DNA of 64,000 nt from positions 1,824 through 65,823 of the forward strand of contig CAZTJT010000023.1 of NCBI GenBank assembly GCA_964613785.1, written 5' to 3'. Positions 5,094 through 58,126 of this stretch are shown in pieces (position 1 is the stretch's first letter; every line of letters begins with the position of its first letter). A program made the translations under genes and the position numbers. The notes beneath the pieces are model-generated. The model had not been told where the DNA came from, searched no databases, and worked only from the letters and a program-made list of their open reading frames with translations. The stretch comes from an uncultured Rikenellaceae bacterium. GTDB lineage: Bacteria; Bacteroidota; Bacteroidia; Bacteroidales; VadinHA17.

Positions 5094-7073
5094 ATGGATC
5101 TATCGATTTTAAAGGATATTGTTATAATTTTTGCCTTGTCGACAATGGTGAACCTGATCTTTACCAGGATCAGGATACCAACGATTGTCGGCTATCTTAT
5201 AACCGGGATGATTGCCGGTCCTTATATGCTGTCACTTGTCAACGCGCGGCATGAGATTGAGCTGCTTGCTGAGGTAGGTGTAGTATTGTTGCTTTTCACT
5301 ATCGGCATGGAATTCTCACTGAAGCATCTCTTAAAGATCAGGCGAATAGTCTTTTTAGGTGGATTTGTTCAGGTAGTATTAACTGCTATGGCATTTATCC
5401 TTATTTCACACTTTTACGGATTGACCTTGAGGGGAGCTGTATTCATAGGTTTTCTTGCGGCTCTCAGCAGCTCGGCTCTTGTACTTAAGCTTCTTCAGGA
5501 AAGATCGGAGCTCACTTCAAATTATGGAAGGACTGTACTGGGAATACTTATTTTTCAGGATCTGCTCCTTGCCCCACTGCTGCTTTTCAGCGATGTTCTG
5601 GCAAATACAAATCTAAATATTCCAAGAGAATTGACCATCCTTGCAGTTAAGGTCTTCATAATTGTTGCTTTTGTATATGCCGGTAATAAATGGGTTTTCC
5701 CTCGGTTGTTATCCCTCATTGCTCTTACAAAAAACCAGGAACTGTTTATGATGAGCGTATTCCTGATCTGTTTTGCAATAGCCCTTCTGACTTCCAAACT
5801 TGGAATGTCTCTGGCTTTTGGTGCATTTCTGGCAGGGCTAATGATATCAGAATCAGAATACAGTTACAATGCGTTTGGGAATTTCCAGCCTGTCAAGGAC
5901 GTTTTTGCCAGCTTCTTTTTTGTATCTATAGGCATGCTACTTGATCTCTCTTTTGTGGTAGACAACTATCAGCTGGTGCTTTTCAGCGTTTTTATGGTTA
6001 TTGTGGTTAAATTCATTCTCGCAGGTGGAACAGGTTTCCTTCTCGGACATACATTTCAGGGAACGGTGCTGATAGGGATAGCCCTTAGCCAGGTGGGAGA
6101 GTTCTCATTTATTTTGGCAAAGATAGGATTTGAAAAATCTATACTTTCCGATTTTTATTATCACCTTTTTCTTGCAGTAGCCGTTATTTCAATAGCTTTT
6201 ACACCATTCCTTCTGTATCTTTCAGGTTTTCTTACGAAAGCCCTTCTGAAACTGCCTCTTCCTGACTTTCTGGTTAAGGGATTATTCCCTCTGAAGGAAA
6301 TAGAAATGCCAGATTTTAAAAATCACCTTGTGATCATCGGCAAAGATGCCAGTGCCCTTAAGCTCTCAGCAATGGCAAGCTATAACTCCATTCAGCATAT
6401 CTCGATAATCTTTGATCCAGCCATTGCTAGGGAAAAAATCAACAATGGAGATCTTGTTGTTTACGGTGATGCTGTAAATGAGCCTATTTTAAGGAAGGCG
6501 CATGTTGATACTGCCGATGTGGTTGTTGTTTCTGTAGGAAGTATTATTCCGTCAATGGCCATAATTGAGAAGGTCAGACAAATGAACAGGAATGCCTACA
6601 TACTTGCAAGGTCAACCCTTATCAGGAATGTTGAACAATTGTATAAGGTTGGGGCCGACCAGGTATTACCGGAGAAGCTGGAGATTGCAATAGACCTGCT
6701 TAACAGGATATTAGTCAGGAGGTTGATACCGCAAAGGGAGGTCAACCGGATAATAACACATATAAGGAACATGAGTCTTGGTGATTTTACGAAAAAGGAT
6801 ATGGTTCACCAGCCCTCCATCCTCGATGAGTTTTCTAAGATCAATATCGCAGCAGTAACTGTTGAGGACCATTCCGAGGTGGATGGAAGGTCGCTGATAG
6901 AAATTGATCTGCGAAAAAAGACCGGAGTAACGCTTCTGGCAATAAGGAGAGGCACAGACATTATTGAACACCCCGTTCCTGAAACGGTATTTCACAGCAG
7001 TGATATTGCCTATTTCCTGGGTGATCCTGAGCAGATAAATTTTGCATCCGAGCTGCTTCACAGAAAAAACTAG
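5094..7073 (+). CDS. Monovalent cation:proton antiporter-2 (CPA2/Kef-like) with TrkA-N and TrkA-C (RCK) domains
   Basis: About 13 TM segments with LLFTIGMEFS, LSSSA, FQDL, GAFLAG, SQVGEF; YGDAVN KTN domain; C-terminal GVTLLAIRRG RCK-C. Confidence 0.92.
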   Translation: MDLSILKDIVIIFALSTMVNLIFTRIRIPTIVGYLITGMIAGPYMLSLVNARHEIELLAEVGVVLLLFTIGMEFSLKHLLKIRRIVFLGGFVQVVLTAMAFILISHFYGLTLRGAVFIGFLAALSSSALVLKLLQERSELTSNYGRTVLGILIFQDLLLAPLLLFSDVLANTNLNIPRELTILAVKVFIIVAFVYAGNKWVFPRLLSLIALTKNQELFMMSVFLICFAIALLTSKLGMSLAFGAFLAGLMISESEYSYNAFGNFQPVKDVFASFFFVSIGMLLDLSFVVDNYQLVLFSVFMVIVVKFILAGGTGFLLGHTFQGTVLIGIALSQVGEFSFILAKIGFEKSILSDFYYHLFLAVAVISIAFTPFLLYLSGFLTKALLKLPLPDFLVKGLFPLKEIEMPDFKNHLVIIGKDASALKLSAMASYNSIQHISIIFDPAIAREKINNGDLVVYGDAVNEPILRKAHVDTADVVVVSVGSIIPSMAIIEKVRQMNRNAYILARSTLIRNVEQLYKVGADQVLPEKLEIAIDLLNRILVRRLIPQREVNRIITHIRNMSLGDFTKKDMVHQPSILDEFSKINIAAVTVEDHSEVDGRSLIEIDLRKKTGVTLLAIRRGTDIIEHPVPETVFHSSDIAYFLGDPEQINFASELLHRKN

Positions 7074-45165: not shown

Positions 45166-46335
45166 ATGAAAAGCAATCAGCCAGCCGCTTCAATCATAAA
45201 CAGCCTTTTTAAGGTGACCTTGTTTTTATCAGTCTTAATTGTTGCCGGAGGATGTAAAAGATCTGCAGTCAGTGAAGATTTGTTGAAGTCAGTTATTCCG
45301 CCTGAACCTGATCCCCGGGGCTATGTATGCTTCAGAACCTCGTCTGCCATAACTCCCGATGGAATTCTCGACGAGCCTTCATGGATTGCCGCACCGTGGA
45401 CTGATTATTTTGTTGATATTGAGGGTGATGCAAAGCCCGTGCCGGCTCTTAAAACACATGCAAAACTGCTGTGGGATGATAAAAACCTGTATGTGGGTGC
45501 GGAACTGGAAGAACCCCATGTATGGGCAACCCTCAGACAGCGGGACACGGTTATTTTCTTCGATAACGATTTTGAGGTTTTTATTGACCCCGACGGGGAT
45601 ACACACAATTACTATGAGCTTGAAGTCAATGCCTTTGGAACAGAATGGGATCTTTTACTGACAAAACCATACAACGACGGAGGATTTCCGGTGAACGGAT
45701 GGGATATAAAGGGACTTAAAACAGGAACCCATGTTGAAGGAACGATAAATAACCCTGGTGACACAGACAAGGGCTGGAGCGTTGAGATAGTAATTCCTCT
45801 TGCAGCACTAAGGGAAGCTGCAGGAGTTGCAGGAATGCCAAAGGCGGGAGATCAATGGCGGATCGGTTTTTCACGGGTTCAATGGAGAATGGTGATCGAT
45901 GACGGAAAGTACCGTAAGGAGATTAATCCGGCAACGGGCAGACCATTCCCCGAAGATAACTGGGTGTGGTCGCCGCAGGGAAGGATCAATATGCATATGC
46001 CTGAGATGTGGGGATACCTTCAGTTTTCAGGGTTAACTGCCGGTTCCGGGACGGAAGAATTAACCCCCGACCCTGATCTCAACAGGAAATGGGCCCTGAG
46101 AATGATCTATTACGCGGAGAAAGAGTATTTTAAGAATAACAATAAGTATTCATCATGCCTTAAGAATATCGGACTGAAAAAGGAAGATCTTCCTGCTAAT
46201 GTCCCAACTCCGAAAATAGAAGTCACAAGAACAACTTTTGAGAGTTACTTCCCGTCAGGCAATGAAAAAGGCAACCTGGTTATTTACCATGACGGGCGGC
46301 TTGTTGACCTTACTAAAATCTCAAAAAACAGATGA
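45166..46335 (+). CDS. Carbohydrate-binding family 9-like (DOMON-type) lipoprotein
   Basis: Lipobox VAGGC; DGILDEPSW, LLWDDKNLY, NDFEVFIDPDGD, YYELEVN, WSVEIVIP, WVWSPQG..NMHMPE. Confidence 0.85.
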   Translation: MKSNQPAASIINSLFKVTLFLSVLIVAGGCKRSAVSEDLLKSVIPPEPDPRGYVCFRTSSAITPDGILDEPSWIAAPWTDYFVDIEGDAKPVPALKTHAKLLWDDKNLYVGAELEEPHVWATLRQRDTVIFFDNDFEVFIDPDGDTHNYYELEVNAFGTEWDLLLTKPYNDGGFPVNGWDIKGLKTGTHVEGTINNPGDTDKGWSVEIVIPLAALREAAGVAGMPKAGDQWRIGFSRVQWRMVIDDGKYRKEINPATGRPFPEDNWVWSPQGRINMHMPEMWGYLQFSGLTAGSGTEELTPDPDLNRKWALRMIYYAEKEYFKNNNKYSSCLKNIGLKKEDLPANVPTPKIEVTRTTFESYFPSGNEKGNLVIYHDGRLVDLTKISKNR

Positions 46336-46409
46336 ACCCCTTTATTAATATTGAATGTCAGATAGTTGAATCCTAAAGTATTGAATTGATTATTAAATTC
46401 TGCAGCCAT

Positions 46410-47681
46410 ATGAAGAGTATTTACTGTTTATTTTTAAGTGTTATTATTCTGACTGGTTCACCGACATCCGCATTGTGCCAGATACAGACAGGATCAGGCT
46501 CTCAGATTCTCATGGGAGCAAGCCAGACCAATATAACTCCTGCATTTCCGGTAATGATGAGCGGATATGAGGCACGCAAAACACCCTCAACAGGAGTTCA
46601 TGATTCATTGTTTGCCACAGCCCTTTATTTTAAAAGCCCCACTACATCATTGCTTCTGATTACAGCTGATCTTATAGGGTACAGCAAGGCTTTTGTTGAT
46701 GAGACCCGGAAGAAAATCACAGCAATAACCGATATCCCGGCGGAGAACATTATGATCACGGCAGCTCATAATCATGGAGGGCCAGTTACCAGGGCTTATG
46801 AGAAAGAGGTGCCTGAATCAGTGGAGAAATATGTAAAAGAGCTCCAGGACAAATTCATAAATCTTGCCGTAAGAGCCTCGAAAAAGCCTGTCCCGTTCAG
46901 GATGGGCACAGGTAAGGGAAAATGCACCATGAACATCAACCGTCGGGCTGAGTTTGCAGATGGCAGCATTTGGCTTGGAAGAGCGCCAGATAAACCATGT
47001 GATCATGATGTAACTGTCACAAAATTCGAAGACATGAGCGGAAAACTGCTGGCTGTTTTTATCAACTGGCCATGCCATGCGACAACAAATGGTCAGGATA
47101 ATTATATGATAACGGCCGACTGGCCCGGAGCGGCAACAAGATATATTAAAAAACATACTGGTGAAGGAACAGTTGTAGCCGTAACAGCCGGCGCATCAGG
47201 TGATATTAATCCTATTTACGGGCCAGGCAATGATTTCCGTGAAATAGAGGGAGTGGGATTTCATGTAGGAAGAACGGCATGGGAAACCTATAACAGTATA
47301 GAGACGATGCCGGTTGAATCGCTGGGAGCAGTTTCAGCATTAATGACATTCCCGGGTAAAAAGATGACAAAAGACCATTTTCCGCAAAAGGAATATGAAA
47401 AAGGCCCCGATGTTGAGATCGGATTGATTGTTTTCAAAATAGGCCATCTTATACTTACCGGTATTTCAGGTGAACTGATGAATGAGATCGGAAGTTCAGT
47501 CAAAACCAGGTCACCTTATACTGCCACTGCAATTATAACCCACTGCAATGGTTCAAGCGGGTATATATGCACTGACAAGGCATTCCCCGAAGGAGGTTAT
47601 GAAATAAAAGTTACCCGTCTTATGCCTGGTGCTGAAAAACCCCTGACAGACAAAATGCTGCAGATGATAAACTCGTTGTAA
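46410..47681 (+). CDS. Neutral/alkaline ceramidase-like N-terminal-domain protein, secreted
   Basis: ATG 46410; MSGY, HDSL.A.A, AAHNHGGP, NWPCHAT, GASGDINP, GYI.T...F.EGGYE. Confidence 0.75.
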   Translation: MKSIYCLFLSVIILTGSPTSALCQIQTGSGSQILMGASQTNITPAFPVMMSGYEARKTPSTGVHDSLFATALYFKSPTTSLLLITADLIGYSKAFVDETRKKITAITDIPAENIMITAAHNHGGPVTRAYEKEVPESVEKYVKELQDKFINLAVRASKKPVPFRMGTGKGKCTMNINRRAEFADGSIWLGRAPDKPCDHDVTVTKFEDMSGKLLAVFINWPCHATTNGQDNYMITADWPGAATRYIKKHTGEGTVVAVTAGASGDINPIYGPGNDFREIEGVGFHVGRTAWETYNSIETMPVESLGAVSALMTFPGKKMTKDHFPQKEYEKGPDVEIGLIVFKIGHLILTGISGELMNEIGSSVKTRSPYTATAIITHCNGSSGYICTDKAFPEGGYEIKVTRLMPGAEKPLTDKMLQMINSL

Positions 47682-47708
47682 AGGTTGTGCATTCAATTTT
47701 TTTACTTG

Positions 47709-49619
47709 ATGATGAAATCGGTAATCCTGAATTCTCTTTTGGCTGTGATTCTGACAACCGGAATCATTTCATGTAAAAAGCCGGCACATATAATTTATGT
47801 CGAAGCTGAGAATTTCAGTCACAGGGGAGGATGGGTAATCGATCAGCAGTCGATTGACCTTATCGGATCTTCATACATTCTGGCACATGGACTCGGAGTG
47901 CCCGTTGAGGATGCTGAAACAACAATCGAAGTTCCATCGGCAGGTAATTATAAGGTATGGGTCCGTACCCGGAACTGGGTTGCCCCCTGGAATGAAGAAA
48001 TATCTCCCGGCAGGTTTCAGCTTGTTGTGGATGGCGTTCCGCTTGATGCAATATTTGGAACAAATGGCATCAAATGGCACTGGCAGAACGGAGGGCGGGT
48101 AAATCTGAACAAAGGAAAGACCAGGCTTTCATTACGCGATCTGACCGGCTTTGAAGGCAGATGCGATGCAATAATTTTTACAGATGATCCCGACCTGATT
48201 CCCCCGGAAAACAGAGATGAACTTTATGACTTCCGGAAAAATCTTGCAGGTCAAGCCATTGCTCCTGAAGATGCCGGCGAATATGATCTTGTGGTTGTTG
48301 GAGGAGGAGTCGCGGGATGCTGCGCTGCGTTGAGCGCTGCCAGATACGGCTGCAAAGTTGCTCTCATACAGAACCGCCCTGTGCTTGGCGGAAATAACAG
48401 CTCCGAGGTTCGTGTGGGACTGTCTGGATTAATTTACCAGCAGCCCTATCCTAAACTTGGCAGACTTGTCGACGAAATCGGATCAATTGGGCACTGGACC
48501 CTGTGGGAAGCAATCCGTGATCCTGACTCCCCAAGGAGCAGACATATACTGGAGGTGATTGAGAAGAATCCTGAAAAGAAGATTCACAACACCGGCCCTG
48601 CAAGCAACTATGGTGATGAAAAGAAACTGGCTGTAATTGAAGCTGAGCCCAACATAAACCTGTTCCTTAATACTCATGTATTCAGGGTTGAAATGGATGA
48701 AGAAAAAATTACCTCTGTAACAGGTAAAAATATTGTTTCAGGTAAAGAAATTATCGTTCGGGGTAAACTTTTTGCCGATTGTACGGGAGATGCTAATCTT
48801 GGATTTCTGGCAGGTGCGGATTACAGGATAGGCAGGGAAAGCAAGGATGAGACAGGCGAGAAATGGGCACCTGAGAAAAGCGACAGCCTTGTCATGGGTG
48901 CCTCTGTCCAGTGGTTCGCCGAATTAACCAGTGCTCCTTCATCATTCCCGGAATGTCCGTGGGCAGAACAGTTCGATGAAAATACTTCGTATAAGGTCAC
49001 CAGGGGTGACTGGGACTGGGAAACAGGCCTGACCCGAGATCAGATTAATGACATAGAGTTCATAAGGGATTACGCCTTCAGGGTCACCTATGGCAATTGG
49101 GATTTCATAAAAAACAAGAGCTCTGAAAGGCAGAAGTTTGAAAATTACAAGCTTGAATGGGTGGCATATATTGCCGGTAAAAGGGAATCAAGAAGACTGA
49201 TGGGAGATGTCATTTTAAGCGAACATGATATTCTGCAAAGAGTTGAATATCCTGATGCGTCTTTTACCACTACCTGGAATATTGACCTCCATTATCCCTA
49301 TAAGTTGAAGGATTTCAACGGAGAACCATTCAGAGCCTATGCCGAGACCCGGCCTATAGATCCGTACCCGGTCCCTTACAGATGCCTTTACTCAAGAAAC
49401 ATTGAAAATCTATTTATGGCAGGCAGGGACATCAGTGTAACTCATGTGGCATTGGGAACGGTAAGAGTCATGCGGACAGGAGGGATGATGGGAGAAGTGG
49501 TGGGCATGGCGGCTTCATTGTGCAGAAAATATGATGTACTTCCAAGGGATATTTACAAAATTTATCTTGAAGAATTGAAGAACCTTATGAAGGATGGAGT
49601 TCCTTCCAGACAGGATTAA
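47709..49619 (+). CDS. FAD-dependent oxidoreductase (PF12831-like) lipoprotein with an N-terminal beta-sandwich domain
   Basis: Lipobox GIISC; EAENF...GGW...YILAHG N-domain; VVGGGVAG, LGGNNSSE, DCTGD, KRESRR, AGRDIS.TH...RVM. Confidence 0.88.
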   Translation: MMKSVILNSLLAVILTTGIISCKKPAHIIYVEAENFSHRGGWVIDQQSIDLIGSSYILAHGLGVPVEDAETTIEVPSAGNYKVWVRTRNWVAPWNEEISPGRFQLVVDGVPLDAIFGTNGIKWHWQNGGRVNLNKGKTRLSLRDLTGFEGRCDAIIFTDDPDLIPPENRDELYDFRKNLAGQAIAPEDAGEYDLVVVGGGVAGCCAALSAARYGCKVALIQNRPVLGGNNSSEVRVGLSGLIYQQPYPKLGRLVDEIGSIGHWTLWEAIRDPDSPRSRHILEVIEKNPEKKIHNTGPASNYGDEKKLAVIEAEPNINLFLNTHVFRVEMDEEKITSVTGKNIVSGKEIIVRGKLFADCTGDANLGFLAGADYRIGRESKDETGEKWAPEKSDSLVMGASVQWFAELTSAPSSFPECPWAEQFDENTSYKVTRGDWDWETGLTRDQINDIEFIRDYAFRVTYGNWDFIKNKSSERQKFENYKLEWVAYIAGKRESRRLMGDVILSEHDILQRVEYPDASFTTTWNIDLHYPYKLKDFNGEPFRAYAETRPIDPYPVPYRCLYSRNIENLFMAGRDISVTHVALGTVRVMRTGGMMGEVVGMAASLCRKYDVLPRDIYKIYLEELKNLMKDGVPSRQD

Positions 49620-49653
49620 TTTATTTGTTGTAACTAATCCATATTTCATTATA

Positions 49654-51444
49654 ATGAGAAATCCGTTTTTCGTAAGTGTATTTTTTTTGATCCTTGCATA
49701 CTCTTGTTCACAGGATAATTACAGGCTGCTTATTGAGGCCGAGAACTTTGATTCCAAAGGAGGATGGCTGGTCGATCCTCAGTTTGTTGAACAGATGGGA
49801 TCACCATATCTTCTGGCACATGGGCTCGGGGTTCCTGTGGAAGACGCAAGGACCGTTGCATCTCTTCCATCGGATGGCAGATATCGGGTTTGGGTAAGGA
49901 CAAAAAACTGGGCTCCAGGGGAATGGGAAGCTCCTGGTCGCTTTCAGATAGCTGTCAATGGGGAAGTCATAGAAGCTGTCCTCGGAACGGAAGAGGGCTG
50001 GGGGTGGCAGCTTGCCGGCTCAGTCAGATGCAATGGCACCAAAGTGACAGTTGAACTTAAAGACCTTACCGGTTTCGAAGCGCGATGCGATGCTGTTTAT
50101 TTTACCTCGGGGAAAGATATCCCCCCTGATGATCCCAAAGAGTTGTCGCAATGGAGGAGAGATCTCCTCGGAGAGGATGAAGAACCGCCACTGAGCAAAT
50201 CATTTGATCTGGTAGTTGTTGGAGGAGGAATAGCCGGCTGTGCAGCATCGATTTCTGCAGCAGAACAGGGATTAAAAGTGGCATTGATACACGACCGGCC
50301 CATACTTGGCGGCAACGCCAGCAGCGAGATACGAGTACATACAGAAGGGATTACCTGGAAATACAACAGGATCCTCAAAATGCTGAATACTGTATGGTGG
50401 CCCAATGGTTCGCCTGATGCTGTATATGATGATAAAAAGAGGCATGAAAATATCGAAAAATATACGGGTATTTCATTATTCCTGAACTGGAGAGCCTATA
50501 CGACCAATGTTTCAGAGGATTCAATAACCTCGGTAGATGCCCGCCATACCTCATCGGGTGAAAAAATACGATTCACTGCACCATTGTTTGTCGATTGTAC
50601 AGGCGACGGATGGATAGGCTACTGGGCCGGTGCCGATTATTTTTATGGCAGGGAGGATTCTGCATTATATCATGAAAACTGGGAGCTGTACAAGGAATTA
50701 TGGAGCCCGGCGAAAGCTGATGGGAGAGTTATGGGGTCATCGGTATTATGGAGAACCATCGACAAAGGAACCCCGGTAACATTTCCTGAGGTGCCATGGG
50801 CTTTGGCAGTTGCAGGCGATTATGCTGCAACAATGGGCACATGGAACTGGGAGTATTCAGATGACAATGTGCATCAAATAGATGATGCTGAACAGATCAG
50901 GGACCATATGCTTAAGGCAATTTACGGTTCTTTTTATAATGCAAAGCGAAAGCCTGAAAATATAAACCTGGACCTGGAATGGACCTCATACCTTTTAGGA
51001 AAAAGGGAATCGAGAAGACTGGCAGGAGACTACATTTATACTTTTGATGATGAAAGAAATATGCGAGAGTTCCCTGACGCTGTAGTAATGGAAAAAAGAG
51101 ATATCGACGTCCATTACCAGCAAAACCTTCTGGATCCGGATAAACCCGATTTCCTGTCGGAGGCTCTTTATTACAGGCTCGATCACTATTATATCCCTTA
51201 CCGGTCGCTTTATTCGAGGAACATTAAGAATCTTTTTATGGCAGGCAGATGTTTCAGCAGCTCGCATGTAGGGCTGGGAGGTCCAAGAGTAATGCACACA
51301 ACCGGCCAGATGGGAGCCGCAGTAGGCTATGCAGCATCAATATGCAGGAAGTATAATACTAATCCGCGGGGAGTCTCTTCAGAATACCTTGATGAACTGA
51401 AGCATCTGATTGAAAACTCCGACAAAGAAACAACCTTTAAGTGA
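49654..51444 (+). CDS. Second, paralogous FAD-dependent oxidoreductase lipoprotein
   Basis: ATG 49654; lipobox AYSC; same N-domain and VVGGGIAG, LGGNASSE, DCTGD, KRESRR, AGRCFS.SH motifs. Confidence 0.88.
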   Translation: MRNPFFVSVFFLILAYSCSQDNYRLLIEAENFDSKGGWLVDPQFVEQMGSPYLLAHGLGVPVEDARTVASLPSDGRYRVWVRTKNWAPGEWEAPGRFQIAVNGEVIEAVLGTEEGWGWQLAGSVRCNGTKVTVELKDLTGFEARCDAVYFTSGKDIPPDDPKELSQWRRDLLGEDEEPPLSKSFDLVVVGGGIAGCAASISAAEQGLKVALIHDRPILGGNASSEIRVHTEGITWKYNRILKMLNTVWWPNGSPDAVYDDKKRHENIEKYTGISLFLNWRAYTTNVSEDSITSVDARHTSSGEKIRFTAPLFVDCTGDGWIGYWAGADYFYGREDSALYHENWELYKELWSPAKADGRVMGSSVLWRTIDKGTPVTFPEVPWALAVAGDYAATMGTWNWEYSDDNVHQIDDAEQIRDHMLKAIYGSFYNAKRKPENINLDLEWTSYLLGKRESRRLAGDYIYTFDDERNMREFPDAVVMEKRDIDVHYQQNLLDPDKPDFLSEALYYRLDHYYIPYRSLYSRNIKNLFMAGRCFSSSHVGLGGPRVMHTTGQMGAAVGYAASICRKYNTNPRGVSSEYLDELKHLIENSDKETTFK

Positions 51445-51472
51445 GATATATCTTTTTCTTAAATATCTCCTT

Positions 51473-52474
51473 CTAGCGGGGCACCGCATATTTCCTTATA
51501 TATTCTTCGACGGGTGATGAACTGTCATAAATATGATTGTCGAATGGTATATCAGTCTGGTAATGATATCCTTCAGCCCATTCGAACCCGTATTTTTCAC
51601 CCAGCTTTTTGTTCTCGTTGAAAACAAATGCTTTTGCATAGTTGAAATTTGCCGTGTGATCATCTCCATCCAGAATAGGTAATCTTTTACCTTCCTTTGC
51701 AAGCCTTTCCCTTAATTTTACTCCGTTATTTCCGGCAGGACCCTTTGCAATATTTAGAAGATTTGCTTCTATCTTTCTGTCGATATAATCGCTGATGTCA
51801 ACTATCAGATTGTTGGTCTGCCCTGCACGGGAATAATAATATCTTTCTTTTGGTGTATAAGGTCCTATTCCGAAAGCAAAATGTTCAGGATAATCATTTG
51901 CTCCGGCAATCCATCTTGCAGCTTCTACGGCAAGACCTGTAACATAATGATCAGGATTTTCTTCATAGTGTCCCCATGGATCCATGCATACAATGGTATC
52001 AACCTTAAGGGCTCTGATAAGGAAGATGAACCTTTGCTTGAGATCCTGGATGCCAATACTGTCGAGCTGATGATGCGGCATAAGCAACTCAAATGATCCT
52101 TTCATTCCGTAGAAATCAGCAATGTTCTGGTTGTCAATTCTGTTCTGTTTATATTCACCTTCACCCCTTGCATCGTCTGTTACAGAACATAAATATCCGG
52201 TGTAGCCTTCATCCATCAGCTTGGCAATCAGACCACCAGCCGATAGGGGAATGTCATCGGAGTGAGGTTGTATTGCCAGCAGAACCTTGCCCTTATGGGG
52301 TTTGCCCTTTACTGACCTTTCTATCATCACCTCAGAATAGTCAACGTCATACCCCCATGGTACTTTCGTTTTCGGATCAAACTTATTCTGATTGCCTGTT
52401 GCTGACAGCCATGCAGTAGCTCCGCCAAGGGTGCCTGTAGCCAGTCCTTTCTGCAAAAATTCTTTACGTTTCAT
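51473..52474 (-). CDS. PIG-L/LmbE family deacetylase with a Tat-like leader
   Basis: KRKEFL leader (RK variant); QPHSDD and NPDH Zn/catalytic motifs. ATG 52474 is chosen because it gives the same leader spacing as the next gene; 52477 is the alternative. Confidence 0.85.
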   Translation of the reverse strand: MKRKEFLQKGLATGTLGGATAWLSATGNQNKFDPKTKVPWGYDVDYSEVMIERSVKGKPHKGKVLLAIQPHSDDIPLSAGGLIAKLMDEGYTGYLCSVTDDARGEGEYKQNRIDNQNIADFYGMKGSFELLMPHHQLDSIGIQDLKQRFIFLIRALKVDTIVCMDPWGHYEENPDHYVTGLAVEAARWIAGANDYPEHFAFGIGPYTPKERYYYSRAGQTNNLIVDISDYIDRKIEANLLNIAKGPAGNNGVKLRERLAKEGKRLPILDGDDHTANFNYAKAFVFNENKKLGEKYGFEWAEGYHYQTDIPFDNHIYDSSSPVEEYIRKYAVPR

Positions 52475-52503
52475 CATAATATAATTTTGATTTTAAAGGT
52501 ATG

Positions 52504-52572
52504 ATGGAACCACACATGTTTTATAAAATTATATTTATGAGTGTTTGTGTTTGCAAAACATGTGGGTTTCAT
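52504..52572 (-). repeat. Leader hairpin, copy A
   Basis: Arms ATGGAACCACACATGTTTT (52504-52522) and AAAACATGTGGGTTTCAT (52555-52572), 32-nt AT-rich loop. Confidence 0.8.
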
Positions 52573-52622
52573 AAAATTAATTTTTAGGTAATTCTTTGTT
52601 TCAATATGTTAATTTTTTCCAA

Positions 52623-54167
52623 TTATTTGGGTACAATACCTGTAGGCTGACCAATTGTAAATCGTCCGCTCCAGAGATGGTCTGAGGAACGTTTGTCATT
52701 CCATTCCTTTGTAGGGGCAAAATAGTTCCTGTCGGTCGGGTATAAATGCCTTTTCACCTCATCTTCATTCAGCTCAATGCCCAGCCCGGGGGCGGAGTCA
52801 GGCACAATGGCAAATCCTTTTTCAGTAAGCTTCCTCCCGTCGGTAGTTTTAACCAGGTTTTCCCACCATGGGTTGTCGACAGCCTGGGTGGTCATTTCAA
52901 GCGCAAGGAAATTCTGGGTGGCTGCTGCGCAGTGTACGCTGGCCATAAAGCCTACTGGAGAACTGGAGCAATGCATGGCCATGGCAATTCCTTTTTCCTC
53001 TGCATAATCACCGATCTTTTTCGTTTCCATAATTCCTCCCGCGGTATGCAGGTCGGGATGGACTATATCTACTGCATGATTATCGCATAGTCTGATGAAT
53101 TCCTCTTTGAGGTATATATCCTCACCTGTAAGTGTGGGAGTTTCCAAAGCATCCGACAGGACTTTAAGCTGACCTGTCATTTCCCAGGAGAGCATGTCCT
53201 CGAGCCAGGCGAGCCGGTAAGGTTCCAAAGCCTTTCCCACCCTTATGCAGTTATTAATATCATAATTGCCAAATCCGTCGGCCGACAATGGAATTTCATT
53301 TCCTGTAACACTTCTTATGAATTCAACATACCTGGCAAGTTCCGCAAGCCCCTTGTCGGTGATCTGAAGCTGAGTAAATGGCTGCTTGGTGCGGTTATAT
53401 GAAGTAATATCAGTGTATTTGGGATCGGCCCAGAATTTTGAATTGACCGTTATGCCGGGTATGTGGCTGATGGTTTCAAGGCTGGGATAGAACTTAAGCC
53501 AGGTATAGCCTTGTTGTTCAATACGTTCCTTTACATCCGCCTTGAATTTGCCGACATCCATATTAGCCCAGTTGTGCACCGGAATATAGGAATACAATCT
53601 TACCCTGTCGCGATATCTTCCCCCCAGAAGCTGCCAGCATGGAACACCGTATGCTTTACCCGCAAGATCCCATAAGGCCATCTCAACAGCACTTACACCA
53701 CCCCCCTGACGTCCGTGAAATCCAAACTGCTTAATTATCTTGAATAGCATTTCAACGTTGCATGGATTTTCACCAAGGATACGGCTCTTGAGCATCAGTG
53801 CATACCTTTCGTCGGCTGCATCCCTTACTTCTCCCAATCCGTATATTCCCTGGTTCGTATCGATCCTGATAAGCGGATTACGGGATCCGTCATCGGCCAG
53901 TTGAAGCACGCAATAGCGCATATCAGTTATTCTCAGTTCGGAAGGACTCGAGGAACGGCTGACATTCGAAGTGGTCCGGGCAATTAGTTCTTCTTCGTCA
54001 GAGAACATATAGGGAGCCAGTGATATTCCGCCTAAAAATGCTCCGGTCTTCTGCAGGAACCGCCGGCGATCAATTCCGTTAGTGGAATCAGGATTTTCTC
54101 TCATCGGGAAGCCAGCCTCTGTATATTCTTTGTTCGGCTGTAACAGATTTTTTAGGATGTTTTTCAT
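52623..54167 (-). CDS. Mandelate racemase/muconate lactonizing (enolase superfamily) enzyme with a twin-arginine leader
   Basis: DRRRFL; GLGEVRD, SAVEMALWDLAGKAYGVP, WLED, TGED, HPD. Confidence 0.9.
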   Translation of the reverse strand: MKNILKNLLQPNKEYTEAGFPMRENPDSTNGIDRRRFLQKTGAFLGGISLAPYMFSDEEELIARTTSNVSRSSSPSELRITDMRYCVLQLADDGSRNPLIRIDTNQGIYGLGEVRDAADERYALMLKSRILGENPCNVEMLFKIIKQFGFHGRQGGGVSAVEMALWDLAGKAYGVPCWQLLGGRYRDRVRLYSYIPVHNWANMDVGKFKADVKERIEQQGYTWLKFYPSLETISHIPGITVNSKFWADPKYTDITSYNRTKQPFTQLQITDKGLAELARYVEFIRSVTGNEIPLSADGFGNYDINNCIRVGKALEPYRLAWLEDMLSWEMTGQLKVLSDALETPTLTGEDIYLKEEFIRLCDNHAVDIVHPDLHTAGGIMETKKIGDYAEEKGIAMAMHCSSSPVGFMASVHCAAATQNFLALEMTTQAVDNPWWENLVKTTDGRKLTEKGFAIVPDSAPGLGIELNEDEVKRHLYPTDRNYFAPTKEWNDKRSSDHLWSGRFTIGQPTGIVPK

Positions 54168-54196
54168 ACGTATATAATTTTGATTTTAATGGTCGT

Positions 54197-54270
54197 ATGG
54201 AACCACACATGATTGAAAGTTAATTGTTTTCATTTTCTTATGTGATTTTGGTCAATCATGTGGGTTTCAT
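54197..54270 (-). repeat. Leader hairpin, copy B
   Basis: Arms ATGGAACCACACATGATTGA (54197-54216) and TCAATCATGTGGGTTTCAT (54252-54270), 35-nt loop. Confidence 0.8.
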
Positions 54271-54614
54271 GCCTGAATGATTTTATTGGGTTTTGATTTG
54301 CTATTGTGGACTGTTCATATAAATTTATTAAAGTCCTGAAATTAGGGACCACTTATTATGAAGATTGGCTATGGTTTTTATCATATAGTTTTACAGAGTT
54401 GTGCGGAGAAAACGCAGAGTTGAACAGAGACGTAATACCTTGTAACTACTGCATTAACAACTACTATCTCAGAGGTCTGGGTAAAATGGTTGCAAATTTC
54501 TTTCAGGAAGAATTAGCTTTGGTTCAGTTCCAGTTCAATTAATTTATTTCGCAAGTATTTATTAAATTGTACATTATTTAACCTTTCCGGATCCCGGATT
54601 AAAACCTAAGCGAT

Positions 54615-56753
54615 ATGAAACTCATTTCTTCCTTAATTTTCAAATCTTTAAGGATCGCACTTCCCATGCTGATCTTATTGGTATTTGGCGGCTGCCACAA
54701 TACAGCAAATGATGTCCGCGAATACGGATGGTTTGATTTTGTTATTCCTGATTCTGACACGATTCAGAATGATGTCGACATGTCATTCCTGAATGAGCCT
54801 CAGGCTGGGGCATCGGGTTTTGTTACGGTTAAAGACGGGCATTTTATCGACGGCAAAGGTGACAGAATCCGTTTTTTCGGAACCAATCTTACATTCGGCT
54901 CATGCTTCCCCGACAAGGAGACTGCTGCAGAAATTGCCGGAAGGCTCAGAAAGCTAGGGATGAATGTTGTAAGGTTTCATCATATGGATAACCAGTCAGC
55001 GCCAAACGGGATCTGGGACAAGGATAAAAAAGACCTTGACCCGGGACAGCTTGAAAAACTAGACTGGCTGATCTACCAGCTTAAAATCCATGGTATCTAC
55101 AGCAACATAAACACCCATGTATCATACATCTATCCGGGTGTGGACTATAAAGATATTGAACATTTCAATTACGGTAAAGGGATAGACAATTTTTACAGGC
55201 CATATATTGAGATGCAGAAAATTTATGCCGAAAAGCTTCTTAAGCACGTCAATTCCTATACGGGAAATGCTTACACTGATGAACCTGCTGTTGCGTTTGT
55301 TGAGATAAACAATGAAAACTCGCTGCTTTCAAACTGGGCTGTGCTTCCGAAACTTAACAGGGAGCACATGAAAAGCCTCCTTTCCCAATGGAATACATGG
55401 TTGAGGTCCAATCCGGAATATCCAAAAAGAGAGGGATTCACCAATGATCTGATGGATATCATTACAAATTACAGCACAAAATCAACAACCGCCAGGGAGA
55501 CCATGTGGGCTTTCCTGATGGATACCGAAATTTCCTACGCAAAGGAGATGACGGATTTTCTGAAAAATAAACTTAATGTCAAGGCTCTGGTTTCTGAATC
55601 CCAGGCCTCATATAGTGGTGCTGCAGGTGTTTTAAGAGAGGCGGAATCAGCAGATTTTATTGACATGCATGCTTACTGGGAACACCCTTCCTTCCCTGGC
55701 CGGATCTGGTCTTCAACAGAATGGTTGATCAGAAACTCATCAATGGTATCAGACAGGATGGGAGGAACACTGCTTTCCTTCGGTCTTCACAGGGTGGAAG
55801 GGATGCCCCTTACCATAAGTGAATACGATCATCCGGCTCCCAGCTTCTATTGCGCCGAGATGTTCCCGATGATTAATTCCGTTTCAGCATTCCAGGATTT
55901 CGATGGGATTTATCATTTTACCTTTAACAGGCCCTACGATCAGGGAAGAATAAATAATTTCTTTTCCAGCGCGGGGCATCCCCTTAAGCAGGTATTCGTG
56001 CCTGCGGGTGCAGTTCTCTTCAGGATGGGTGCAGTTCGGTCGGGCCAGCAGAAGGTCAGTCTCAATATGCCCCGTGATGCCGTCCTCGGTGAACTGGCAG
56101 AATCAGGAAGTGAACTGAGACTACACAGGTCAAACATGAAAAGCGTCTGGAAGAAATACGGAGCTCATGAATCACTGATAGCACTACACCCAATGAGCGT
56201 TAACCTTCAAGCTTCGAAACCGGGGCTTTCCGGTTCTGTCACAGATCCGGAAGGTGTCTGGGAAAGCGAAACCGGCGAGATAATATGGGATAACACTGAT
56301 TCATCAAATGCGGTATTCAAGGTAAAAACACCTTCAGCCAGGGTCGCTGCCGGTTATATCGGAGGGAAAGCCATTGAACTAGAAAATGTAACAGTGGAAA
56401 TGGATACCACCCCTTTTAACTGGGCCACTGTTGCAATAACCTCACTCGACGGCAAACCATTGGAAGAATCATCCAGAATATTGCTTGTCGCTGCAGGAAG
56501 GGCTGAAAACACGGCGATGAAGTGGAATGAGGAAAAAACCACAGTAGGAACCGGATGGGGCGACGCCCCAACAAGGGTTGAAGGCATTCCTGCCAGATTG
56601 ATATTCAGGGATATGGATAAATTCAGAGTGCATTCACTCGATCCCGCAGGAAACAGGAATACAGAGGTACCCGTATTCAAAAGGGGCAAAAATCAGTCAT
56701 TCAGTATAGGAGCCCAGTATAAAACATTATGGTATATCATCGTAAGAGAGTGA
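54615..56753 (+). CDS. GH5-like (clan GH-A) glycoside hydrolase lipoprotein of uncertain subfamily
   Basis: Lipobox FGGC; RFFGTN, NVVRFHH, EINNE (acid/base), DMHAYW, ISEY (nucleophile), QDFDG; C-terminal beta domain. Confidence 0.75.
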   Translation: MKLISSLIFKSLRIALPMLILLVFGGCHNTANDVREYGWFDFVIPDSDTIQNDVDMSFLNEPQAGASGFVTVKDGHFIDGKGDRIRFFGTNLTFGSCFPDKETAAEIAGRLRKLGMNVVRFHHMDNQSAPNGIWDKDKKDLDPGQLEKLDWLIYQLKIHGIYSNINTHVSYIYPGVDYKDIEHFNYGKGIDNFYRPYIEMQKIYAEKLLKHVNSYTGNAYTDEPAVAFVEINNENSLLSNWAVLPKLNREHMKSLLSQWNTWLRSNPEYPKREGFTNDLMDIITNYSTKSTTARETMWAFLMDTEISYAKEMTDFLKNKLNVKALVSESQASYSGAAGVLREAESADFIDMHAYWEHPSFPGRIWSSTEWLIRNSSMVSDRMGGTLLSFGLHRVEGMPLTISEYDHPAPSFYCAEMFPMINSVSAFQDFDGIYHFTFNRPYDQGRINNFFSSAGHPLKQVFVPAGAVLFRMGAVRSGQQKVSLNMPRDAVLGELAESGSELRLHRSNMKSVWKKYGAHESLIALHPMSVNLQASKPGLSGSVTDPEGVWESETGEIIWDNTDSSNAVFKVKTPSARVAAGYIGGKAIELENVTVEMDTTPFNWATVAITSLDGKPLEESSRILLVAAGRAENTAMKWNEEKTTVGTGWGDAPTRVEGIPARLIFRDMDKFRVHSLDPAGNRNTEVPVFKRGKNQSFSIGAQYKTLWYIIVRE

Positions 56754-57636: not shown

Positions 57637-57690
57637 TTCACACGAAAATAATATAACTAAATTAATGAATACTAAGCATTTCGTGTGGAA
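57637..57690 (-). repeat. Hairpin between hypA and hypB resembling copies A/B
   Basis: TTCACACGAAA (57637-57647) and TTTCGTGTGGAA (57679-57690), 31-nt AT-rich loop; a second hairpin CGAGCT-CGCA-AGCTCG follows. Confidence 0.55.
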
Positions 57691-57739
57691 CCTTCATGAT
57701 TGACTTCGTCGAGCTCGCAAGCTCGGTTATGAATTATTT

Positions 57740-58126
57740 TCATGATCTTTTGTGTTTTTGTATCATGAAGGTTTCATCCTGAACTTCTTCGATTGTCAGG
57801 GATACAACCCTGAACTCATGGCCGCCCCTTATCTCTGCCGGGAATGAGCTGCAGACGGGGCATGTGTCGATCCTATGATCCATCTCAAACTCGAGGTCGC
57901 AGCTCCGGCAGAACCCTTTGCCTTTTATTCTGATGATATTAAGCCTGGCTTTGTCAAGTATTGAACCTTCTGACAGAATCTCCATGGCCGACTGAAAAGC
58001 TCCGGTATCGACACCGCTCAGGTCTCCAACCTCGATAGATATTTCGCTGACCAGCCGGGCATTGTTTTTTGCAGCTTCCTCTCCGGCAATCTTTACCACT
58101 TCACTGGCCAGTGAAAACTCATGCAT
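57740..58126 (-). CDS. hypA: Hydrogenase maturation nickel metallochaperone HypA
   Basis: MHE N-terminus, VGDLSGV, CRSC and CPVC Zn ligands, GGHEFRV. Confidence 0.95.
   Translation of the reverse strand: MHEFSLASEVVKIAGEEAAKNNARLVSEISIEVGDLSGVDTGAFQSAMEILSEGSILDKARLNIIRIKGKGFCRSCDLEFEMDHRIDTCPVCSSFPAEIRGGHEFRVVSLTIEEVQDETFMIQKHKRS

Follow-up and report, generated by a model that had tools for sequence, protein, structure and literature searches.

The window, i.e., the whole 64-kb stretch of DNA analysed here, carries a PIG-L gene and an enolase-family (MR_MLE) gene, both on the minus strand and preceded by leaders that read 52572→52468 and 54270→54162, respectively. The resemblance of the two leaders, reported in an earlier note on this DNA, was confirmed by a repeat-family listing and by direct reading: 52480–52518 and 54173–54211 are identical at 35/39 nt, and CATGTGGGTTTCAT is shared without mismatch by 52559–52572 and 54257–54270. 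At up to two mismatches, CATGTGGGTTTCAT has 3 matches against 0.63 expected, and ATGGAACCACACATG, exact at 52504–52518 and 54197–54211, has 2 matches against 0.11 expected. The likeness stands, but it is not private to the two genes; the leaders are two copies of a dispersed repeat. The repeat unit is 98–110 nt long and consists, in order, of ATGAA(A), a hairpin (hairpin 1; 14–19 bp with a loop of 30–45 nt), a small second stem (stem 2) in which CAT+NNN pairs with N'N'N'+ATG, an A-rich tract, and another ATGAA(A).

Copy 1, before the PIG-L gene (52468–52572, minus strand), comprises a 98-nt insertion and a 7-nt direct repeat, ATGAAAC (52572–52566 and 52474–52468), scores 108 bits with CM R1, and lies 50 nt behind a co-directional upstream gene. 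The left arm of its hairpin 1, ATGAAACCCACATGTTTT (52555–52572), begins with the original start codon, the loop (52523–52554) holds ACACAAAC and a sigma70-like TTGCAA-N17-TATAAT, and the right arm, AAAACATGTGTGGTTCCAT (52504–52522), has a bulged T and an A·C mismatch. Stem 2 with its loop spans 52472–52506, CATCATA (52506–52500) pairing with TATGATG (52478–52472), and the loop sequence CCTTTAAAATCAAAATTATAT (52499–52479) is a putative A-rich translation-initiation module. Copy 2, before the enolase-family gene (54162–54270, minus strand; 91 bits with CM R1), comprises a 103-nt insertion and the direct repeat ATGAAA (54270–54265 and 54167–54162). Its hairpin 1 is formed by ATGAAACCCACATGATTGA (54252–54270) and TCAATCATGTGTGGTTCCAT (54197–54216); stem 2 (54165–54199) joins CATACG (54199–54194) to CGTATG (54170–54165), which includes the start codon, and the A-rich module (54193–54171) lies between the stem-2 strands. 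A degenerate copy 3 (57638–57777, minus strand; 41–49 bits with CM R1, E about 1e-4) lies between a hypA-like and a cobW-like gene and is not fused to a start codon. Both its outer-stem arms (ATGAAACCTTCATGAT/ATCATGAAGGTTCCAC) and its stem 2 (CACACGAAA at 57687–57679, TTTCGTGTG at 57647–57639) are compensated, and its loop contains a nested GC-rich palindrome at about 57733–57704.

The arms of both leaders pair as the earlier note claimed and were recovered as inverted repeats I1 (copy 1) and I4 (copy 2). The gene-sense folds (−20.7 kcal/mol, z = −3.4; −22.0 kcal/mol, z = −3.2) reproduce the same A·C mismatch and one-base bulge in both copies, the bulge being a subfamily trait found in 50/109 copies. 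The inner stem is compensated between the copies (TTTT/AAAA versus ATTGA/TCAAT), and in both copies 29 nt separate the end of the stem from ATGAAA, which is the modal spacing across the family (77/115 copies). The description of the loops as unrelated was wrong, as ACACAAAC and TATAAT blocks are common to loops across the family. A second stem, which includes the start codon and is compensated between the copies (CATCATA/TATGATG versus CATACG/CGTATG), had been overlooked. An intrinsic terminator was rejected for these hairpins: no U run lies 3' of the hairpin, and a terminator scan found none at these positions.

Copy number and distribution

In six independent metagenomes, copy 1 had 18–29 times the word depth of its flanks (X1, 290/9.7; X10, 1358/48; X15, 335/14.5; X2, 394/14; X23, 165/6; X24, 136/7.5), and many distinct flanking sequences start at 52469/70 and 52572–74. 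An exact gapped-pattern scan returned more than 111 stretches in dozens of MAGs, assigned to Bacteroidales, Rikenellaceae, Paludibacteraceae, and Lentimicrobiaceae, with at least 22 copies on a single 3.36-Mb contig. Copies also occur in head-to-tail tandems with a common ATGA(AA) junction (loci L039, L075, and L103). The scan pattern fixed the outer-stem sequence, so the 10 pairs of that stem are invariant in alignment A2 partly by construction; copies found independently of the pattern show mostly decay, not compensation. Short-read assemblies break at gene starts where the repeat lies, with contig ends at 52497/52545 in many data sets. Coverage of intergenic DNA is even in the runs labelled "METAGENOMIC RNA-Seq", which behave like DNA, and unitigs from true metatranscriptomes are broken at the repeat.

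Phages and plasmids are not an evident vehicle, since blastn in "distant" mode gave no match in plasmid and phage collections and IMG/VR gave only 2 matches among 2.9 million contigs. The comparison with Rfam matched no family, with 0 matches at the gathering score across the whole window and 0 at E ≤ 1 within 52400–54400. A full-text literature search with the arm sequences returned unrelated primers only, and a keyword search of the literature found no description of this repeat family.

Conserved structure, putative initiation module, and candidate promoters

Both stems covary in the enlarged alignment, with 92.6% of cells paired and a covariation score of 0.129, compared with 0.045 for shuffled alignments (0/500) and at most 0.026 when the structure is slid. 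Stem 2 occurs with 10 distinct complementary triplet pairs, its pair types being AU 77, CG 18, and UA 5 at one position and GC 58 and UA 39 at another; it is too weak to be present in the RNAalifold consensus. In hairpin 1, the 14-bp outer stem is invariant in sequence and the variable inner extension is compensated.

Upstream of the second ATG, A occupies positions −11, −12, and −13 in 94, 93, and 90% of copies, −14 in 65%, and −6 in 82%. This placement matches the initiation determinants measured in Flavobacterium johnsoniae (PMC6847099), and we infer from the sequence that the A-tract functions as a translation-initiation region.

The loop could contribute a promoter as well. TATAAT is found in 69/109 loops, 50–51 nt before the ATG. 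Bacteroidetes housekeeping promoters reportedly follow the pattern TTTG/TAnnTTTG, a description credited to Bayley et al. in 2000. A Bacteroidetes-type TTTG...TAnnTTT is present in only 4/109 loops and a full sigma70-like pair in only 23/109, so a loop promoter is at best a weak candidate for a family trait. One could nevertheless regard the repeat as a "mobile promoter" cassette exploited by the host, of the Neisseria REP2/CREN type, whose main effect as it spreads would be to bring genes under a promoter in the loop; transcription would then start near the right arm and give an mRNA with a stem-2 leader. The TTGCAA-N17-TATAAT of copy 1 points in the gene-sense direction, as this would require, and precedents are available in REP2 and the Borrelia IR repeats (PMC3184786) and in putative mobile promoters (PMC3575422). 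Beyond the low counts of complete promoters, copy 1 sits so close behind a co-directional gene that a promoter would be unneeded there, and we consider this explanation doubtful.

The opposite strand offers another candidate. Copies 1 and 2 both have a perfect TAnnTTTG as the reverse complement of CAAAATTA, so that TAATTTTG might act as a Bacteroidetes −7 box driving a small antisense RNA that ends in the hairpin. The plus strand of the window indeed folds more stably (−24.5 and −32.9 kcal/mol), and the conserved A·C mismatch becomes a G·U pair on it. However, the G of the box corresponds to a C at −15 that only 39/109 copies have, any −33 element would fall in unrelated coding sequence, and a terminator-like U run is not consistently found 3' of the hairpin. 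Sense copies also score at least 62 bits with the CM (41–49 for copy 3, the most degenerate) and overlapping antisense matches at most 54 bits. An antisense RNA therefore appears extremely improbable as the reason for the repeat.

Empty sites and the insertion target

Copies 1 and 2 are insertions of 98 and 103 nt, each between direct repeats of the start codon, because close relatives with alignable flanks have empty sites. At the PIG-L gene, loci L200 and L201 are both empty, their flanks aligning on both sides of a gap of 98 columns; the empty site reads ATGAAACG and the filled site in the window reads ATGAAAC[...]ATGAAACG, so that the junctions are exact. The enolase-family site is empty in L200, where it reads CAGGTATGAAAAACATC (…ATGAAAAAC…), and filled in L201. 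Both copies are missing from more distant orthologues, and at the position of copy 3, L200 has a 39-nt spacer only.

The direct repeat has a fixed sequence at both insertions (ATGAAAC and ATGAAA), and the left flank is ATGA in 102–108 of 109 copies across the family. The fixed repeat may reflect a specific target together with an identical element end rather than a duplication. An 8-bp duplication, which would require identical triplets in the left flank and in front of the right ATG, was ruled out by inspection. An integron attC-like site was also rejected: the R''/R' consensus of attC sites, RYYYAAC/GTTRRRY, misfits the arms, and relatives carry both genes without the repeat.

The unit is small, non-coding, and multi-copy, with sequence-invariant 14-bp arms and a 5–7 bp direct repeat around the insertions, which would suit a classical DDE-type MITE in which the arms would be the terminal inverted repeats left by a deleted IS and ATGAA an ordinary target-site duplication. 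The tandems and the depth boundaries, however, place stem 2 and the A-tract, about 35 nt of conserved sequence, beyond the right arm, which is thus not terminal, and in the family consensus the actual ends of the unit, 5' and 3', do not form inverted repeats with each other. The "duplication" is fixed in sequence, which sets it apart from most DDE target duplications, and no arm pair with a gene between was seen in the window or in about 0.86 Mb of loci. We regard a DDE-type origin as improbable.

Position relative to genes

Among 115 copies, 84 (73%) end in the ATG of an ORF that has at least 60 codons or runs off the locus, compared with 26% of other ATGAA sites (binomial p = 5e-26, the copies not being independent); the remaining 27%, copy 3 included, are not fused to a long ORF. 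The downstream proteins are functionally diverse, 65 Pfam families being represented among 68 of them, with no transposase. Across the family, the flank preceding the left ATG resembles true gene starts in its composition. The frequency of A at −11 to −13 is 0.61–0.66 in this flank, 0.54–0.61 at real starts, and 0.25–0.31 at other ATGAA sites, and the GC content is 0.26, 0.27, and 0.42, respectively. In 31/99 copies, the old ATG opens an ORF of 31–32 codons that ends in a TGA overlapping the new ATG; in 34/99, the upstream ORF stops after four codons (MKPT*). Because an ORF open to the overlapping TGA is restricted to those 31 copies, we rejected a leader ORF as a general feature of the repeat and keep it at most as a possibility for one subfamily.

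The earlier note had put forward a conserved cis-acting RNA as one of two explanations. In a fuller form of this reading, the hairpins would act in the mRNA as a riboswitch-like, protein-binding, or processing/stability leader and define a regulon. Several observations agree with it: both stems covary, the start codon lies inside stem 2, the orientation relative to genes is uniform, and G·U exceeds A·C at variable pairs on the gene-sense strand (26 versus 11), which weakly favours folding of the sense strand. The downstream genes, however, have no common theme, and close relatives carry orthologues of the same genes without the element. A regulatory leader would also sit poorly with 18–29 near-identical copies in one genome, with tandem and gene-less copies, with the failure of any Rfam family to match at E ≤ 1, and with an outer stem conserved in sequence and not merely in pairing. 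As the primary explanation, a cis-acting RNA is quite improbable, although the covariation of the structure leaves room for a secondary RNA-level effect on host mRNAs. The other suggestion of the earlier note, a tiny mobile palindrome that supplies a translation-initiation region, is borne out by the high copy number, the many MAGs with matches, the empty sites, the unrelated downstream genes, and the A-rich tract at the initiation determinants. Random orientation and position, named there as the mark of a plain DNA repeat, were not found; copies are highly non-random in both respects relative to genes, because of start-codon targeting and selection.

Discussion

The two "leaders" are very probably copies of a mobile, non-autonomous DNA repeat, about 100 nt long, that occurs widely among uncultured Bacteroidales and inserts at ATGAA(A). 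In genomes that are SD-less and rich in Met-Lys starts, ATGAA(A) would mostly be a start codon with the first bases of codon 2. Upon integration, the original start codon with its native upstream region would become the outer base of the long 5' hairpin, and the second ATGAA(A), at the 3' end of the element, would be fused in frame to the gene. Insertions at start codons would be tolerated, as the gene keeps a start codon and gains a good initiation region, and insertions at ATGAA sites within genes would be purged; copies would for this reason be concentrated at gene starts. The stems are probably maintained for a mobilising enzyme, which would work on a folded single strand, and the loop may hold an outward promoter. 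Mobility is read here from its outcomes rather than from a mechanism. In the 64-kb window and about 0.86 Mb of flanking loci, we found neither a transposase nor an autonomous parent, and no arms separated by a gene were seen; apparent orphan arms proved to be either decayed copies or unbulged copies matched on the reverse strand.

A more specific version of the mobile-repeat explanation can be proposed tentatively, although we consider it unlikely: a minimal single-hairpin transposon that is moved as a folded single strand, is guide-paired to start codons, and is possibly transparent to expression. The pairing of a guide with the cleavage site in IS608 is said to have been established by Barabas in 2008 and Guynet in 2009. 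Here, the guide would be an internal segment at the hairpin foot, (G)GTTCCAT+NNN or GGTTCCAT(NNN), which could pair with the target ATGAAA to form the base of hairpin 1 and also with the element's own 3' end, N'N'N'ATGAAA, to form stem 2; by pairing with both, it would direct integration to start codons. The insertion would be expression-transparent if the old start codon opened a short ORF whose UGA overlaps the new AUG, allowing translational coupling, and if the element provided an optimal SD-less initiation region.

Annotators of Bacteroidales genomes should not take identical hairpins upstream of genes as regulons or riboswitch candidates. For genome evolution, the repeat provides a documented example of a short mobile element that survives because it lands at start codons and rebuilds them; its range takes in several families of an order that matters ecologically, and it poses the question of what enzyme recognises ATGAA. 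Judged by its sequence, the 3' module, with A at −11 to −13 and −6, would be a naturally selected portable initiation region that works, or is at least tolerated, before dozens of unrelated genes; it is directly testable and a potential genetic part for Bacteroidota. If guide pairing is true, the logic of IS200/IS605 would extend to a one-hairpin element, and if the single-hairpin proposal as a whole is true, the repeat would be a natural, programmable mobile element targeting start codons.

Several known systems share features with the repeat. The mycobacterial MIRUs, reportedly described by Supply et al. in 1997, are said to be short intergenic repeats in head-to-tail tandems with small ORFs overlapping the stop and start of flanking genes. 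Our repeat resembles them in being short and intergenic, in its head-to-tail tandems, and in its overlapping small ORF, but the latter is found in only a third of copies, and hairpins are not a feature of MIRUs. The Correia elements of Neisseria, MITEs with promoters, are likewise small multi-copy mobile repeats that alter the expression of neighbours and place a long hairpin in transcripts (PMC3575422, PMC3184786). We saw in the Bacteroidales repeat neither their terminal inverted repeats of 26 bp nor their TA duplication nor their IHF site, which PMC3184786 also names.

Other features are shared with the IS200/IS605-derived PATEs and the REP/REPIN-RAYT systems, which rely on HUH Y1 enzymes that act on folded single strands, are likewise asymmetric, lack terminal inverted repeats, and have hairpins with conserved irregularities. 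Like these, our repeat is inserted in one orientation beside a short invariable sequence, ATGA, identical to its own last bases, and the bases beside the hairpin foot covary with those beside the cleavage or junction site, as in the guide pairing of IS608. It differs from PATEs in having one long hairpin and a weak second stem instead of separate left-end and right-end hairpins, and from REPs in lacking a GTAG/CGTC-tagged palindrome of 20–40 nt and in being fused to start codons, whereas REPs typically lie at gene 3' ends. According to PMC3337134, REPINs also consist of two arms, inverted and flanking a spacer. For the Bacteroidales repeat, we identified no TnpA or RAYT gene in the window or in the flanking loci. 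On contig JAXGLU010000001.1, copies in both orientations are interspersed within a few kb, which would misfit the strict replication-strand bias of IS608-type elements, a comparison that is confounded by selection for the gene sense.

The closest known kind appears to be that of Neisseria REP2 (CREN) and the Borrelia plasmid repeats IR-A/IR-B (Delihas 2011, PMC3184786, citing Parkhill 2000, Morelle 2003, and Dunn 1994), a likeness of kind that would not imply common descent. The Bacteroidales repeat belongs to another phylum, spans several families rather than one genus, has no link to a regulon, and has only a doubtful promoter. Its initiation module is an SD-less A-tract and not the Shine-Dalgarno site described in the available portion of that text, which does not report for REP2 the insertion at exactly ATGAA(A), the start-codon direct repeat, or the retained native upstream region found here. 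According to the same portion, REP2 and the IR repeats are, as here, intergenic, 100–150 bp long, and multi-copy, with a few tens of copies per genome and without terminal inverted repeats. They too have two internal stem-loops, corresponding to our hairpin 1 and stem 2, and carry expression signals, the counterpart here being the predicted initiation signal. They also lie directly upstream of unrelated ORFs to which the ATG of the repeat is fused, as in 84/115 of our copies against 26% in the control.

Two gene leaders formed by insertion

The leader common to two minus-strand genes of the ORF map, the PIG-L gene (51473-52477; PF02585) and the enolase-superfamily gene (52623-54167; MR_MLE_N and MR_MLE_C), is a small mobile repeat, a variant of an already known kind. 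Copy 1 (52468-52572, minus strand) precedes the PIG-L gene and copy 2 (54162-54270, minus strand) the enolase-family gene. The similarity reported in the earlier note was reproduced: 52480-52518 and 54173-54211 are identical at 35 of 39 positions, the 14-mer CATGTGGGTTTCAT is exact in both copies (three matches with ≤2 mismatches, 0.63 expected), and the pairing arms of both hairpins are present as inverted repeats (I1, I4). The 15-mer ATGGAACCACACATG is also exact in both (two matches with ≤2 mismatches, 0.11 expected). Of the two explanations that note offered, a tiny mobile palindrome supplying a translation-initiation region is upheld, and a conserved cis-acting RNA structure is not, as the main story.

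The insertions are proven directly by empty sites in relatives. The 90%-identity cluster of the enolase-family protein includes Bacteroidales MAG proteins, two of which were located on NCBI MAG contigs, GCA_964514725.1 (L200) and GCA_012798035.1 (L201), with flanks alignable on either side of both sites. The PIG-L start is empty in both relatives (…ATGAAACG…), whereas the window reads ATGAAAC, the insert and then ATGAAACG, 98 extra nt in all. The enolase start is empty in L200 (…CAGGTATGAAAAACATC…), holds 103 extra nt between two ATGAAA in the window, and is filled in L201 with an additional 28-nt GC-rich piece in the loop. Since copy 2 is common to the window and L201, it is the older one; copy 1 is recent, consistent with its matching the high-depth consensus. 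Remoter orthologues from JGI metagenomes (71–85% amino-acid identity) lack the repeat at the enolase start, and most of them also at the PIG-L start, where the exceptions are L118 and L120 (3' module only) and L134 (a longer variant).

The surrounding cluster (45166-54167) encodes a CBM9-like, a ceramidase-like, two FAD_oxidored, the PIG-L and the enolase-family proteins, likely exported sugar- or lipid-modifying enzymes; the N-region of the enolase-family protein is long, is conserved in orthologues and is followed by a twin-arginine-like motif (DRRRFLQKTGAFLGG). A 712-aa ORF without Pfam match (54615-56753, plus strand) separates cobW from the enolase-family gene in the window and likewise in L201. 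L200 lacks it, cobW and the enolase-family gene being adjacent there in that order, a gene-content difference between close relatives.

Copy number and spread

Logan contigs of four digester and sludge metagenomes were aligned to the region, and two more runs were added. Word depth in the four was 10–48 in the flanks versus 290–1358 at 52470-52572, and contigs broke at 52469/70 and 52572-74, with many different sequences beyond. The two further runs agreed, the ratio of copy 1 to flank being 18–29 in six of six samples. This constancy across samples of unlike absolute abundance argues that the high-depth copies are located in one and the same genome. Copy 2, a diverged variant, reaches only ~1.3–4x depth. 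Short-read assemblies of many samples stop inside copy 1 (52497/52545 and the contig ends of the extracted loci L001–L006); the repeat systematically causes contigs of Bacteroidales MAGs to break at gene starts.

A gapped exact pattern made from the two arms matched at least 111 stretches in dozens of MAGs of a species-representative genome collection. Among the matches listed, carriers were labelled Bacteroidales, Rikenellaceae/Rikenella, Paludibacteraceae, Lentimicrobiaceae and Bacteroidia, and a single 3.36-Mb contig held 13 loci. One match falls under a Firmicutes label (L037, DIWC01000030.1, a 2.7-kb contig of 'Peptococcaceae bacterium UBA6116') and is probably a binning error. Rfam, with which the earlier note had proposed a comparison, and the plasmid and phage collections gave no match to the repeat; IMG/VR gave two, on contigs classed viral (L198, L199). 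In the neighbouring loci examined, we found no gene enclosed by the arm pair and no transposase among the neighbours.

Anatomy and structural conservation

In gene sense, the consensus of extracted and aligned copies begins with ATGA and AACCCACATG, followed by a loop with ACACAAACAC and then TATAAT; the 3' part reads CATGTG(N)GGTTCCAT, CAKACC, WTTAAAATMAAAATTATAT, N'N'N' and ATGA plus AA. ATGA forms the left flank in 102–108 of 109 copies, and tandem copies have one common ATGA(AA) at the junction (L039, L075, L103). Gene-sense folds of copies 1 and 2 exceed those of shuffled sequences in stability (z = -3.4 and -3.2). The fold contains a short second stem, overlooked previously, immediately 3' of the big hairpin, in which CAT of GGTTCCAT and 3–4 further bases pair with the ATG of the start itself and the bases preceding it; it is compensated between the copies (CATCATA/TATGATG in copy 1, CATACG/CGTATG in copy 2).

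Paired cells amount to 92.6% in a 109-sequence alignment. Covariation, proposed earlier as a test, scored 0.129 against 0.045 in shuffles (0/500) and ≤0.026 with slid partners. Stem-2 pairs vary between AU 77, CG 18 and UA 5 and between GC 58 and UA 39, with ten different complementary triplet pairs, and stem 1 has either UA (55) or AU (34) as its first inner pair. The ten outer pairs of stem 1 are invariant, in part a consequence of their being fixed in the scan pattern. The covariance model suggested in the earlier note, built from the family alignment and scanned over the same loci and the window, added pattern-independent copies, including a third in the window; most of these have single mismatches through decay, and only copy 3 and L014 are clearly compensated. 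A sequence-specific outer stem, combined with an inner stem and a stem 2 conserved in structure only, is what one would expect of a transposon end recognised by a protein. RNAalifold recovered stem 1 only. With its 22-nt loop, stem 2 has little thermodynamic stability, and that it is conserved nevertheless suggests a constraint other than stability. Which strand folds is ambiguous: variable pairs on the sense strand are G.U versus A.C at 26:11, the A.C conserved at the base of the stem would become G.U on the opposite strand, and folding of the plus strand is the more stable.

Copy 3 is degenerate (~57638-57777, minus strand) and lies between a hypA-like ORF and the cobW-like gene, where the hypA-cobW spacer of L200 is 39 nt. 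Compensatory changes affect its outer stem (CCTTCATG/CATGAAGG), a part otherwise invariant, as well as its stem 2 (CACACGAAA/TTTCGTGTG). It has no start-codon fusion, cobW starting with ATGTG. The hypA-like frame continues into the left arm of this copy and stops there (…IEEVQDETFMIQKHKRS*), whereas HypA of L200 ends …IEEE; the insertion thus changed the protein's C-terminus.

Some copies carry a partly palindromic GC-rich piece of ~28–30 nt (…CCGAGCTTGCGAGCTCGACGAAGTCAAT…) in the loop, namely copy 3 (~57704-57733), the enolase copy of L201, L083, L087 and L088. Being present in L201 and absent from the window at the same orthologous site, it was gained or lost independently, and it may be a second, nested mini-element. 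Other variants place a different GC-rich hairpin (e.g. CCCGCTTAGGCGGG or CCGCCAGCTGGCGG) before the same A-rich 3' module, with the big hairpin present or absent (L093, L134 at ~1480-1632, L013, L068, L112); the module seems common to several repeat types.

Position at start codons

Of 115 copies, 84 end in an ATG from which a reading frame extends for ≥60 codons or past the end of the locus; among the other ATGAA sites of these loci, 26% begin such a frame. Sixty-eight proteins encoded downstream are complete and belong to 65 different Pfam families, which makes a regulon unlikely; examples are ApbE, ferrochelatase, TyrRS, pantoate ligase, TonB-receptor plug and beta-lactamase-fold proteins, and no transposase was found among them by Pfam. 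In 87 solitary copies, the DNA 5' of the left ATG has A at -11 to -13 at 0.61–0.66 (real gene starts 0.54–0.61, other ATGAA sites 0.25–0.31) and a GC content of 0.26 over -25 to -1 (0.27 and 0.42, respectively). This genuine gene-start signature indicates that the left ATG is the gene's original start codon, with the native leader still before it. Insertion also occurs outside functional start codons, as seen from a head-to-head pair in L014 (6578-6685, plus; 6769-6872, minus; 84 nt apart), neither member of which is backed by a gene.

Relative to the terminal ATG, A occupies -11, -12 and -13 in 94%, 93% and 90% of copies, -14 in 65% and -6 in 82%; A at -3 (39%) marks the CAT/ATG subfamily, which includes copy 1. 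In Flavobacterium johnsoniae, adenines at these positions are positive initiation determinants according to ribosome profiling and reporter mutagenesis (PMC6847099). From this coincidence we infer that the 3' module would deliver a consensus SD-less initiation region along with the start codon. A putative promoter in the hairpin loop is uncertain: copy 1 has TTGCAA-N17-TATAAT in gene-sense direction, and TATAAT (69/109 copies) is the sole promoter-like feature common to the family, the full pair occurring in 23/109 and the Bacteroidetes-type TTTG…TAnnTTT in 4/109. A leader ORF from the old ATG runs 31–32 codons to a TGA overlapping the new ATG in 31 of 99 copies, including copy 1, and ends after MKPT in 34 of 99, including copy 2; one subfamily may therefore use translational coupling, which is no trait of the family.

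Relation to known repeats

The repeat resembles substrates of HUH Y1 transposases (IS200/IS605 PATEs, REP/REPIN-RAYT) in its asymmetry and hairpin irregularities, in a fixed left-junction ATGA identical to its own last four bases, and in one internal segment (GGTTCCAT+NNN) that pairs with both ATGAAA ends. In contrast to them, it has one hairpin rather than two and is interspersed in both orientations on one chromosome. Putative mobile promoters (PMC3575422), Correia elements and MIRUs each have single traits in common with it. The closest kind is Neisseria REP2 and Borrelia IR-A/IR-B, 120–150 bp repeats without terminal inverted repeats, with two internal stem-loops, that carry a promoter, RBS and ATG fused to ORFs and reach 23–26 copies by an unexplained proliferation (Delihas, PMC3184786). 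The Bacteroidales repeat differs from these in four respects: phylum, SD-less module, breadth across families and a start-codon target, for which the direct repeat and the preserved native leader are demonstrated here.
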